From NCBI GenBank assembly GCA_964448095.1, contig CAYUUT010000004.1, forward strand, positions 14,289 to 78,288: a stretch of 64,000 bases of DNA, read 5' to 3'. Positions 24,463 through 27,429 of the stretch are shown here, in pieces; position 1 is the stretch's first letter, and each line of letters begins with the position of its first letter. The translations under genes and the position numbers were made by a program. This DNA comes from an uncultured Candidatus Saccharibacteria bacterium (GTDB lineage: Bacteria > Patescibacteriota > Saccharimonadia > Saccharimonadales > UBA10212). Below the pieces are notes generated by a model. That model was given only the letters and a program-made list of their open reading frames with translations, did no database searches and was not told where the DNA came from.

Positions 24463-25887
24463 TTGAAAGCCCTCGAACTAAAAACTATCGGGACTGCCAT
24501 ACAAAGCATTTCGCCGGTTAAGTTCTTTATCGTCATGGCCGCAGTTTTTGGCCTAGTCTTCATAATTATTATCCCGCCTTTCCAAGGGGCTGACGAACCT
24601 CTGCATTTTTACCGCGCCTACCAGGTATCGACCTTTAATTTTGTAGTTGATGAAAATGTGGGAAGGGATTTTGGCGGTGTTTTACCGAGCTCCCTAGAGA
24701 ACACTGTGGCTTTAACCGCCAATAACTCGAACCTTGGCAACCTAAAACCTAATGAAAAGTACAATATCCATACGACCTCAGAGGCTCTATCCATAAAAGA
24801 AACCCCGAGTCAGCGTGAGTGGGTTAATTTTACCGCCACTGCGCCTTACCCCCCTGTTGCTTACATCCCCCAAGCCACGGGGGTACTCATAGCCCGGATT
24901 TTACGAGCACCTCCGATTTTAATGATGTACGCAGGCAGGTTGATGAACTTAACGGCCTGGATTGTCTTGCTTGCTCTGAGTATAAAAATAATGCCTAGAA
25001 AAAAGTGGGCATTTGTATTCATAGGCTTACTGCCAGTCGCCCTCACTCAAGCAGCCTCTTTGAGCGCCGACGTAATGACAATAGGGCTGTTCGCTCTGTT
25101 CTTTGCCACTATAATGCGGTCTATCCTGCGGACTAAGCCTTTTACTAACTTAGAGCTGGCTGGCTTACTTTTGATTATGGTCCTGCTGGTCCTCTGTAAG
25201 CAAATAAGCTTTGTATTTTTACCCCTCCTTTTGTTGATACCCAGCAAAGCATTCGGCTCAAAGAGAAAGGCCTATGCAATTAAAGCGGTTTTTCTTTTAG
25301 TTTCCCTGGCTATATATACGACATGGCTTTACATAATCAGAGACCTGAATTTTAAAAGCGTATTTGCTAATCACGAGAATCCAACCCAACAGATACATTT
25401 AATTATCCATAACCCCCTGGGTTTTATTAATGCTCTATGGGATAGCTACTTCTTTAGCTGGGGCGATGTTACGACTAAGTCCTTTATCGGTACTTTCGGC
25501 TGGGGAGATACAAGCCTATCGGAACTAATAGTTACTATGGGCTACATAGGCCTATTCCTTGTCGCTACAATAAATCCCTACAACCACCTACGGCGCTGGG
25601 TTACAAAGCGACAAAAAATATGGCTCGGTATTATGGGGATAGTATACTGGCTCGCTATAACTGCAACCCTATACGCCTACTACAACCCCGTAGGGGCAAA
25701 AACCATCCTCGGCTTACAAGGCCGGTACTTCTTGCCGCTTGGATTCATTGCAATACCGTTGCTATATAGTAATTGGCTAAAAAGCAGTAAAACGGCATAT
25801 AAAAAAATAGCGGTGTTAGTGCCATTATTCCTTTTGCTAACCAGTGTTGTCACAATCTACTTTAGGTACTACATAAACTATGCCTAG
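24463..25887 (+). CDS. DUF2142-type polytopic membrane protein (GT-C-like putative extracytoplasmic glycosyltransferase)
   Basis: About 12 TM helices. The first-loop motif GADEPLHFYRAYQVS is typical of DUF2142. TTG start. Confidence 0.65.
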   Translation: MKALELKTIGTAIQSISPVKFFIVMAAVFGLVFIIIIPPFQGADEPLHFYRAYQVSTFNFVVDENVGRDFGGVLPSSLENTVALTANNSNLGNLKPNEKYNIHTTSEALSIKETPSQREWVNFTATAPYPPVAYIPQATGVLIARILRAPPILMMYAGRLMNLTAWIVLLALSIKIMPRKKWAFVFIGLLPVALTQAASLSADVMTIGLFALFFATIMRSILRTKPFTNLELAGLLLIMVLLVLCKQISFVFLPLLLLIPSKAFGSKRKAYAIKAVFLLVSLAIYTTWLYIIRDLNFKSVFANHENPTQQIHLIIHNPLGFINALWDSYFFSWGDVTTKSFIGTFGWGDTSLSELIVTMGYIGLFLVATINPYNHLRRWVTKRQKIWLGIMGIVYWLAITATLYAYYNPVGAKTILGLQGRYFLPLGFIAIPLLYSNWLKSSKTAYKKIAVLVPLFLLLTSVVTIYFRYYINYA

Positions 25888-26299
25888 AATCGGATTCATT
25901 GAAAAAACAAGGGTCCACTCAGCCTCGAAGTACTTTGTGGTCGGCTTATCGGCCTTCGCGGCCGACTACCTGGTTTTGCTAATAACTTACTACCTAATTA
26001 ACTTACCGCTAAAGGTCGCCACCAGCCTTGGGTTTTTTAGCGGCTTTATTATCAGTTTTGGTGTTAACCGCAAGTGGGTTTTTGGTGGTAATCAACGCAA
26101 GCGTTTGTGGCGCCAGATTGCAGAATATCTAGCGCTTCTGATTTTCAACTATGTTTTTACGGTTTGGGGGGTTAGCTTTCTGAATAACCACAGCATAAAA
26201 CCCTTTATCGGCAAGCTGCTGGTTATGGGCCTGGTGATGTGCTGGAACTACGCGCTATTTCGCTGGATTATTTTTGTTGGTGTTGAAGAAGCTAGTTAA
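25880..26299 (+). CDS. GtrA-family small membrane protein
   Basis: 139 aa with 4 TM helices. KYFVVGLSAFAADYLVL...NRKWVFGG...WNYALFRWIIF are GtrA patterns. Confidence 0.75.
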   Translation: MPRIGFIEKTRVHSASKYFVVGLSAFAADYLVLLITYYLINLPLKVATSLGFFSGFIISFGVNRKWVFGGNQRKRLWRQIAEYLALLIFNYVFTVWGVSFLNNHSIKPFIGKLLVMGLVMCWNYALFRWIIFVGVEEAS

Positions 26300-26654
26300 G
26301 CTTATTTTTGGAAGCGATAACTGAGATTTTTTCGTGCAAGTCAGAAAAGCGCTTTTCTAAGGCTTCAATTTTAGAGTATGCACTGAGGCATAGGGAAAGA
26401 CTGAGCATCAGGCCGGTGGCTAAGACTACGTCCGGCAAACTCAAAGGGGTGCTATCGGTCAGCCCGTGGTTGAATAGGTAGTTATAAATTGGCTCGGCGA
26501 ATATCAAGCCAGCCAGAATTATTAGCCAAAAAATAACCCGCAGCGAAAAGGTCAGCCAGTCGATTAATTTTGTTCGGTAAGCCATCAAGGCTTTGAGTAA
26601 GCCAAGGAATACGAAAGGCACATTGAGAATAAACAGCAACAGGTATTTACTCAT
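26292..26654 (-). CDS. DUF2304-family small membrane protein (GacJ-like partner of GT2)
   Basis: 120 aa with 4 TM helices and a C-terminal amphipathic/coiled tail (IEALEKRFSDLHEKISVI). Start overlaps the stop of the upstream GT2. Confidence 0.6.
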   Translation of the reverse strand: MSKYLLLFILNVPFVFLGLLKALMAYRTKLIDWLTFSLRVIFWLIILAGLIFAEPIYNYLFNHGLTDSTPLSLPDVVLATGLMLSLSLCLSAYSKIEALEKRFSDLHEKISVIASKNKLN

Positions 26655-27429
26655 TGAAAAACTCCAATAGGCGGAACTTTAGAAGCTGGCGGACAATGTT
26701 AACTACCTCCCAGTTGGTTTGGCCCTTAGACATGGAGTATTCACTGTAGATGGCTTTGATAGGAATTTCTTTGACCGTGAGTTTATTTTGTTTGATACGC
26801 CACATCAGCTCCGAATTATAAGTATAGTTATTGCTGTAGAACTTTATAGACTGCAGAGCTTTTCGATTGTAGCCGCGCAGCCCGGACTGAGAGTCTTTTA
26901 CGAAGATTCCAAATAGTGCAAAGGTGAATAAGCCGCCGCCTTTATTCAAGAGCACCCTATACCACGGCATGCCTTCGGCGTTAACCAGCCGGCTGCCAAT
27001 CACAATATCGTTCTTGTCTTTCATTATTTCGGTAAGGACTCTTGCGGTGTCCTCTGTAGCGTGTTGGCCGTCGGCATCCATACTGACCAGGTAGTCAAAG
27101 CCGTTGTCGCGGCCATAACCCAAGCCAGTGCGCGCCGCTGCGCCCGCTCCACAGTTCAGCAAATGGCTTACGAGCACCACGCCTTCGTGCTTGAGCACAA
27201 CTTCAGCGGTGTTATCTTTCGAACCGTCATTTACTACCACAACCGTGATATTTTTTGAATTACTTAGTTTAATGTATTTGAACAGGTCATCTAACACGCT
27301 ACCAATCACAGTACCTTCGTTATAAGCAGGTATAAAAATAGCTATTTTTTTCTTAGGCTCTCCCATATTCAGTCTATATCTTATCAAATCTGGAGCAACC
27401 ATGCGGATTTGTAACCCTTGGTCTATCAA
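26647..27429 (-). CDS. GT2 glycosyltransferase, soluble GacI-like polyprenyl-P-sugar synthase candidate
   Basis: IAIFIPAYNEG...VNDGSKDNT...SMDADGQH motifs. No C-terminal TM helices. Paired with DUF2304. Confidence 0.8.
   Translation of the reverse strand: MIDQGLQIRMVAPDLIRYRLNMGEPKKKIAIFIPAYNEGTVIGSVLDDLFKYIKLSNSKNITVVVVNDGSKDNTAEVVLKHEGVVLVSHLLNCGAGAAARTGLGYGRDNGFDYLVSMDADGQHATEDTARVLTEIMKDKNDIVIGSRLVNAEGMPWYRVLLNKGGGLFTFALFGIFVKDSQSGLRGYNRKALQSIKFYSNNYTYNSELMWRIKQNKLTVKEIPIKAIYSEYSMSKGQTNWEVVNIVRQLLKFRLLEFFNE

Follow-up and report, generated by a model that had tools for sequence, protein, structure and literature searches.

A convergent Saccharibacteria locus encoding a predicted GacI/GacJ-type split synthase, a GtrA-family protein and a DUF2142 protein: a candidate four-component transmembrane glycosylation system

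Multi-component transmembrane glycosylation systems have been described in two architectures, one comprising a membrane-anchored GT-A glycosyltransferase, a GtrA-family protein and a GT-C transferase, and the other a GT-A enzyme, a small membrane protein, a Wzx-type flippase and a GT-C transferase (PMC8035078). In streptococcal GacIJKL, GacJ is a DUF2304 protein with three transmembrane helices that complexes with and stimulates GacI, the synthase of N-acetylglucosamine-phosphate-undecaprenol (GlcNAc-P-Und) (Rush et al., bioRxiv 10.1101/180810). The flippase GacK is of the Wzx type (bioRxiv 10.1101/180810; PMC8035078), and Table 2 of PMC8035078 places GacL in Pfam PMT_2. Rv3632, also a DUF2304 protein, assists PpgS (Rv3631), and a separate GT-C enzyme, Rv3779, transfers the sugar outside. 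Lactococcal WpsA/WpsB are homologues of GacI/GacJ whose GlcNAc-P-Und product is elongated in the cytoplasm (PMC10821137). GacJ, Rv3632 and WpsB each stimulate a GT2 partner that makes an N-acetylhexosamine-phosphate-polyprenol (HexNAc-P-polyprenol). Here we describe a locus of four genes, encoding a GT2, a DUF2304, a GtrA-family and a DUF2142 protein, at positions 24463-27429 of a 64,000-nucleotide (nt) stretch of contig CAYUUT010000004.1 (the window), from an organism identified as a member of Candidatus Saccharibacteria by the names on homologues and related loci. The locus mixes the split synthase of the second architecture with the GtrA of the first and a DUF2142 protein predicted to be a GT-C enzyme, and the four genes probably make up a four-component transmembrane glycosylation system assembled from pieces of different known systems.

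The analyses establish the family and fold assignments, together with the translational coupling of GT2 to DUF2304. On the + strand, the DUF2142 polytopic membrane protein (24463-25887; 474-amino-acid (aa) open reading frame (ORF), PF09913) overlaps the GtrA-family small membrane protein (25880-26299; 139-aa ORF, PF04138) by 8 nt. On the - strand, the candidate GT2 polyprenyl-phosphate sugar synthase (26647-27366, longest ORF to 27429; PF00535) is followed by the DUF2304 small membrane protein (26292-26654; 120-aa ORF, family-level PF10066). An earlier reading made from the DNA alone (the original prediction) had given these four ORFs with exact coordinates and overlaps, and its claim that GT2 and DUF2304 are translationally coupled is borne out by the GT2 stop and DUF2304 start, which share 8 nt (ATGAGTAA). 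As it had also described, the - strand pair converges on the + strand DUF2142-GtrA pair; the 3' ends of GtrA and DUF2304 share 8 nt. The GT2 most likely starts at M22 (position 27366) and is 239 aa long, because an identical deposited protein has this length and homologues have 232-249 aa. For DUF2142, the TTG at 24463 is the most likely start and is favoured over the deposited start at M25, because homologues have 466-487 aa and the extra N-terminal helix is modelled with a predicted local distance difference test score (pLDDT) of 81-94; this start sits only 4 nt after the gene for a PglF-like dehydratase.

Profile searches gave strong Pfam matches for DUF2142, GtrA and GT2. The GT2 matched PF00535 (E = 1.7e-21), and its best NCBIfam model was PpgS, the mycobacterial polyprenyl-phosphate-GalNAc synthase (142 bits, E = 1.8e-41, positions 4-218 of 226), a score so far under the 370-bit equivalog cutoff that the protein is not a PpgS orthologue. 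Its sequence matches in the PDB were DPMS (5mlz, 4.7e-13) and ArnC, and its model has a GT-A fold for which the 24 best Foldseek matches were all ArnC, DPMS or GtrB (best E = 1.2e-10). The nucleotide-binding Asp (D47), the DxD motif (D97xD99) and a downstream Asp (D158) were invariant in 40 sequences. A hydropathy scan gave no C-terminal transmembrane helix and one marginal segment at 159-177, in keeping with a GT-A catalytic subunit that has no membrane helices of its own; the original prediction had called this protein soluble, which is right as to the missing helix, and the enzyme is probably peripheral to the membrane. By homology, the product would be a HexNAc-monophosphate-polyprenol.

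The small protein encoded after the GT2 belongs to a divergent subfamily of DUF2304. The original prediction had assigned it to DUF2304 directly; taken as a single sequence it matched PF10066 below threshold (E = 0.063, 14 bits, gathering score 25.5), aligning to profile positions 8-101 of 106, and the assignment stands at the level of the family. Among 34 homologues (44-86% identical in alignment A1), 33 matched PF10066 at E <= 0.01 (best 5.9e-7). The family profile, searched against 1.84 billion representative proteins, gave 87 matches, and all ten tested of the 17 weakest were canonical DUF2304 proteins (50-98 bits). A hydropathy scan gave three hydrophobic segments, and the model has helices at 3-27, 33-51, 53-62 and 73-115, the layout of hairpin, short helix and long helix that was published for the WpsB model (PMC10821137). 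The subfamily assignment follows from the homologue matches, the reciprocal profile search and this layout together. With 120 aa, three transmembrane helices and a C-terminal helix, the protein has the form of a DUF2304 partner (~110-125 aa), and it is presumed to be the anchor and activator of the GT2.

The GT2-DUF2304 pair is the most constant part of the locus. Synteny was assessed in 10 distinct related loci, scanned with hidden Markov models built from our own alignments; the statistics are limited to these 10 because a scan of genome collections with the small protein gave only 5 loci. In 10/10 loci, as in the window, the two genes stand side by side and overlap (by 8 nt in eight loci and 4 nt in two), an arrangement expected of co-transcribed partners. 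None of the 87 family-profile matches is a fusion protein, all being 193 aa or shorter, so the Rosetta-stone argument for the pair has to be taken from the literature. When the two proteins were modelled with AlphaFold2 as one chain in the order DUF2304-GT2, which is that of natural fusions and of the active WpsBA construct, the model had a pLDDT of 88 and a predicted template modelling score (pTM) of 0.79 from an unpaired, block-diagonal alignment, values that are suggestive of a defined relative placement of the two proteins at a real interface.

[quoted passage not shown] Its sole Pfam match was PF09913 (E = 6.5e-59, profile positions 3-391 of 395), and an AlphaFold2 model built with 62 homologues had a pLDDT of 95 and a pTM of 0.94. 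Foldseek comparison of this model with the PDB showed structural similarity to solved GT-C enzymes, which filled ranks 1-16 (AglB, Pmt4, STT3, ALG12, ArnT, PglB, ALG3 and PimE); EmbA/EmbB and ALG9 stood further down, and Pmt1/2 were also among the fold matches. The original prediction of 12 transmembrane helices is approximate: hydropathy gave 9-10 segments and the model roughly 11-12 membrane helices, within the about 8-13 of polytopic GT-C enzymes. The dipeptide D44-E45, in the motif PPFQGADEP right behind the first transmembrane helix, was invariant in 62 sequences with identities down to 24%, as were R159, D203, K246 and Y422. The protein has a conserved acidic motif in its first extracytoplasmic loop, just where GT-C enzymes carry their catalytic acidic motif. 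The neighbouring GtrA protein matched PF04138 over its full length (E = 9.6e-19) and is presumed to be the flippase for the lipid-linked sugar.

The following mechanism is proposed, based on homology for the synthase step and on fold and motif for the final transfer. The GT2, having no transmembrane helix, would dock on DUF2304 at the inner face of the membrane and would move one sugar from a uridine diphosphate (UDP)-sugar to undecaprenyl phosphate, giving sugar-P-Und. This sugar would most likely be a HexNAc, possibly a 6-deoxy-HexNAc supplied by the neighbouring PglF-like dehydratase and short-chain dehydrogenase/reductase (SDR). The GtrA-family protein would carry the lipid-linked sugar to the outer leaflet, where the DUF2142 protein would take it as donor and, by way of its Asp44-Glu45 loop, decorate an extracytoplasmic acceptor, most likely the ABC-transporter-exported glycan of the same cluster.

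Several points weigh against this four-component mechanism. GtrA abuts DUF2304 in 5/10 loci, and in 5/10 a DUF2142 gene is found no more than 10 kb from the pair. The four genes therefore do not form a fixed unit, and that the convergent halves are partners is argued mainly from proximity. The GT-C fold matches of DUF2142 are weak (best E = 2.1e-3, template modelling scores 0.3-0.45), the alignment behind the fused-chain model was unpaired and, as to the sugar, the GT2 scores far below the PpgS cutoff. So far as we are aware, no GtrA-family protein has been demonstrated by biochemistry to act as a flippase. A review calls this role 'predicted' (PMC8035078), and the lactococcal DUF2142 proteins have been proposed to be oligosaccharide polymerases or ligases, not monosaccharide transferases (PMC12599335; PMC10821137).

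The first of these points bears on whether the two halves belong together at all. With the pair present in 10/10 loci and GtrA and DUF2142 each in 5/10, the synthase pair is the invariant core, and the flippase and transferase look interchangeable. Where DUF2142 is missing, unrelated polytopic proteins of 620-680 aa are found nearby, with DUF7657 and DUF7654 or with no Pfam family, and more distant DUF2142 genes, in planctomycetes, pair with a methyltransferase-GT2 fusion and no DUF2304. The halves also lie on opposite strands and are therefore on different transcripts. Such observations would fit two separate systems, in which GT2-DUF2304 serves another transferase or a secreted protein family and DUF2142-GtrA, as part of the + strand polysaccharide operon, draws on another donor, for example from a PgfS-like GT2 at 11.8 kb. 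We consider this very unlikely: the exact convergent four-gene layout with overlapping 3' ends is seen again in L002/L003, GtrA abuts DUF2304 in half of the loci, and next to the other lipid-sugar synthase of the window lie a GtrA and a polytopic partner that belong to it. The large polytopic protein near the pair at nearly every locus fits a swappable transferase partner better than it fits independent halves. These 620-680-aa proteins (10-15 predicted transmembrane helices; L009 10786-12831, L011 10800-12794, L004 3396-7254 and L012 12212-16038) are candidates for unrecognised GT-C-like transferases.

Compared with the described systems, using published family assignments for GacI, GacJ, GacL, WpsI and WpsJ, the locus is a functional analogue of GacIJKL and not an orthologue; it is not a GacIJKL cluster. 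The original prediction had proposed that the four genes could play the four GacIJKL roles, with GacJ as a DUF2304-type activator of GacI. This view of GacJ agrees with Rush et al. (bioRxiv 10.1101/180810), and the genes can plausibly fill the four roles; homology extends to the GT2 and DUF2304, whereas the flippase and the GT-C differ. Shared with GacI/GacJ is a GT2 free of transmembrane helices with a co-transcribed, three-helix DUF2304 protein, and shared with Gac as a whole is the logic of a lipid-monophosphate sugar, flipping and GT-C transfer outside. In Gac, a sugar-P-Und lipid accumulates when gacL is mutated. Gac differs in its Wzx-type flippase GacK (GtrA-type here), in the PMT_2 family of GacL (DUF2142 here) and in its phylum, and neither polyrhamnose genes like those of Gac nor deoxythymidine diphosphate (dTDP)-rhamnose genes were seen among the annotated window ORFs. 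A scan of part of the window ORFs likewise gave no rhamnose-pathway families; rmlABCD-like genes lie nearby in the relative L002.

The PpgS/Rv3632/Rv3779 system, which decorates mycobacterial and corynebacterial arabinogalactan with galactosamine (GalN), resembles the locus in that PpgS is the best curated model for the GT2, in its DUF2304 helper and in its separate GT-C enzyme; it differs in that Rv3779 is encoded elsewhere and in its arabinogalactan, which is not present here. The classical GtrA/GtrB/GT-C systems (Shigella Gtr, CsbB/GtcA/YfhO and lactococcal Csd/CflA) share a GtrA beside a GT-C candidate and a GT2 of GtrB fold. Their synthases own C-terminal transmembrane helices; here the GT2 (26647-27366) has none and a separate DUF2304 protein takes over that function.

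The lactococcal pellicle polysaccharide system shares a GacI/GacJ-type pair (WpsA/WpsB), the WpsB helix layout and DUF2142 proteins acting outside the membrane (WpsI/WpsJ). DUF2142 is the family of WpsI and WpsJ-like proteins, and the DUF2142 protein WpsI is described as having a partner, WpsH, that is largely extracellular (PMC12599335). By analogy, HexNAc-P-Und could serve as a primer that cytoplasmic glycosyltransferases extend and that DUF2142, once the product is exported, polymerises or ligates en bloc to another glycan, with the adjacent secreted proteins in the place of WpsH. The shared DUF2142 family, the cytoplasmic elongation of the WpsA/WpsB product, the many soluble glycosyltransferase genes in the cluster and a secreted protein family that accompanies the pair in 9/10 loci are all compatible with this, and at one relative, L006, two adjacent DUF2142 genes and an 11-transmembrane 415-aa protein occur with no GtrA. 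We nevertheless regard such a scheme as unlikely here. In Wps, GlcNAc-P-Und grows into an oligosaccharide that a Wzx-type flippase exports before it is polymerised or ligated, and Wzx-type flippases serve both Wps and Gac, whereas the flippase candidate here is GtrA-type, a family usually linked to monosaccharide donors; no Wzx-family match was found among window ORFs scanned between 0 and 44 kb. The 415-aa protein of L006 has no Pfam match, and the secreted 677-aa protein of the window, which would stand in for WpsH, has no detectable similarity to a known family. In L006, a 1.1-Mb Saccharibacteria contig, the stretch 4537-8711 holds the two DUF2142 genes, which are divergent, followed by the 415-aa gene, and a string of GT2, 116-aa DUF2304 and GT2 lies ~3 kb further downstream, with no GtrA; the 415-aa protein is possibly a Wzx-like exporter.

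Under the preferred four-component mechanism, donor sugar and acceptor are both inferred from the surrounding genes. A + strand string that includes a 997-aa GT2-GT2-GT4 protein, an SDR and the dehydratase ends with DUF2142 and GtrA. The PglF/WlaL-like UDP-GlcNAc 4,6-dehydratase (23007-24458, +; PF02719, E = 1.2e-116; PDB match 5bjw (WlaL/PglF), E = 6.2e-81) is a possible supplier of a 6-deoxy-HexNAc donor. The preceding GalE-like SDR (22148-23017, +; PF01370, E = 1.2e-40), whose gene overlaps that of the dehydratase, may be an epimerase or a 4-reductase and so a possible second step of donor synthesis; its PDB matches were generic SDRs and GalE only. At L001, FnlA/B/C-like genes come after the synthase pair. 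A HexNAc or 6-deoxy-HexNAc donor is thus plausible, given the dehydratase and SDR in the string and the FnlA/B/C-like genes in L001. The same cluster encodes Wzm/Wzt, three GT4s, a methyltransferase, a polyprenyl-phosphate sugar-1-phosphate transferase, a Wzy_C protein and UppP, and because Wzm/Wzt, GT4s, the sugar-1-phosphate transferase, Wzy_C and UppP are present, it holds a candidate polysaccharide acceptor. The 997-aa protein (19158-22151, +), whose domains are joined by a coiled-coil-like linker, is placed after Wzm/Wzt and the methyltransferase, a layout reminiscent of the enzymes that polymerise and terminate chains where O-antigen is exported by an ABC transporter.

The surface chemistry of Saccharibacteria, which are ultra-small, for the most part uncultured and dependent on a life attached to other bacteria, is largely uncharted. 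The locus indicates that they share the GacI/GacJ-type split lipid-sugar synthase with streptococci, lactococci and mycobacteria and that its flippase and GT-C partners appear to be freely exchanged, and it suggests a specific and testable pathway for one surface decoration or more. It amounts to a sound annotation, in which the kind of system is well known, the combination of parts is unusual and the phylum has been little studied; it adds an example of modular part-swapping in multi-component transmembrane glycosylation, and no new mechanism. The loose end worth following is the secreted protein family that co-occurs with the pair, conserved and unannotated, which we flag as a possible target or partner of the system.

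On the - strand the GT2 gene is preceded by genes for a 191-aa membrane-anchored protein (29493-30068; one transmembrane segment at 14-32) and then a 677-aa secreted or anchored, Ser/Thr-rich protein (27449-29482; N-terminal hydrophobic segment), with gaps of 10 and 82 nt. The 191-aa gene is the putative first gene of a - strand operon that ends with GT2-DUF2304. The best - strand promoter-like site (30129-30101) lies just upstream of it, in a scan in which promoter-like sites were not enriched over shuffles and the numbers of promoter and terminator sites scarcely departed from those in shuffled DNA. Behind its anchor, the 191-aa protein carries a Ser/Thr/Pro/Asn-rich linker (~36-104) and a small C-terminal domain, with homologues in L010, L013 and, weakly, L006. 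In 9/10 loci a homologue of the 677-aa protein is encoded no more than 10 kb from the pair (L006 2163-4520, L012 16039-17907, L009 13443-15848, L010 18772-20352, L013 728-2365, L002 10240-12075, L011 13404-13982 and L001 15931-16375 among them), the sole exception being L004, where the contig runs out about 4 kb past the downstream side of the pair. The family has a conserved N-terminal domain of ~290 residues (~30-320) and variable C-terminal domains. Invariant motifs of the N-terminal domain (QKE, CPD, YTPY, GN and WFG) include Glu, Asp, Cys and aromatic positions, and the domain gave no Pfam match (as a single sequence or with 7 members), no PDB match (by sequence or profile) and none in a tblastn search of phages and plasmids. 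The 677-aa protein could be a glycosylation acceptor as in the Pgf system, a WpsH-like partner or an unrelated wall enzyme.

The first of these options leads to protein O-glycosylation, in which the lipid-linked sugar pathway would be unchanged but the DUF2142 GT-C would glycosylate Ser/Thr-rich regions of secreted or anchored proteins, mainly the 191-aa and 677-aa proteins, in the manner of streptococcal Pgf or actinobacterial PMT. The Pgf operon places GT-A, epimerase and GT-C enzymes beside adhesin genes, and the adhesins become GalNAc (N-acetylgalactosamine)-glycosylated. Consistent with a similar coupling here, the two exported proteins upstream of the GT2 contain 20% (677 aa) and 25% (191 aa) Ser+Thr, compared with 10.9 +/- 2.3% in neighbouring proteins, the 677-aa homologues accompany the pair oftener than GtrA or DUF2142 do, and Pmt4, Pmt1/2, AglB, PglB and STT3 are among the fold matches of DUF2142. 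Ser/Thr richness is, however, common among surface proteins, the N-terminal domain of the 677-aa family, given its invariant Glu, Asp and Cys positions, might just as well be enzymatic, and the complete ABC-transporter glycan pathway in the cluster provides an obvious polysaccharide acceptor, so that protein glycosylation seems improbable as the role of the system. A bolder version would take GT2, DUF2304 and the Ser/Thr-rich secreted family as a conserved triad dedicated to O-glycosylation of a Saccharibacteria surface protein, possibly with a 6-deoxy-HexNAc, and served by interchangeable GT-C enzymes (DUF2142, DUF7657 or others); we offer this as a speculation that is doubtful at present. 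If it were true, the surface glycoprotein of the triad could have a part in how these tiny epibionts attach to their hosts.

The original prediction had counted up to three independent decoration routes in the cluster, of which two are supported. Besides the four-gene locus, the module at 8813-12818 is a genuine second lipid-sugar route of the classical three-component type, with a PgfS/ArnC-like GT2 that has two C-terminal transmembrane helices (11844-12818, -; 229 bits to PgfS), a GtrA (11444-11860, -) and an 868-aa protein of ~11 transmembrane helices with a C-terminal PIG-L de-N-acetylase domain (8813-11419, -). The union of a polytopic transferase-like domain with a deacetylase in the 868-aa protein calls to mind the deacetylation in the mycobacterial GalN pathway, a step to which no enzyme is assigned. 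Recent duplication of this module was considered as an origin of the four-gene locus and rejected, the paralogues being 24-32% identical and the polytopic proteins unrelated; GtrA 25880-26299 itself is just 28% and 24% identical to the other two GtrA proteins of the window. The third route is not supported, as the GtrA at 38.7 kb (38722-39294, +) has no synthase of its own and no polyprenyl-phosphate GT2 beside it. This ORF overlaps the end of the gene for the Wzy_C (O-antigen ligase/polymerase-like) protein (37485-38831, +) by about 110 nt and its Pfam domain begins at residue 45, so its true start is probably later.

The window starts with the origin region dnaA-dnaN-recF-yidC, and the glycan cluster adjoins this origin gene set (recF, dnaN, dnaA, yidC and jag/KhpB; 2021-8796). 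At L001 (1-4566), the GT2-DUF2304 pair is ~6 kb from dnaA, and the near-origin position of the glycan cluster may be conserved in Saccharibacteria.

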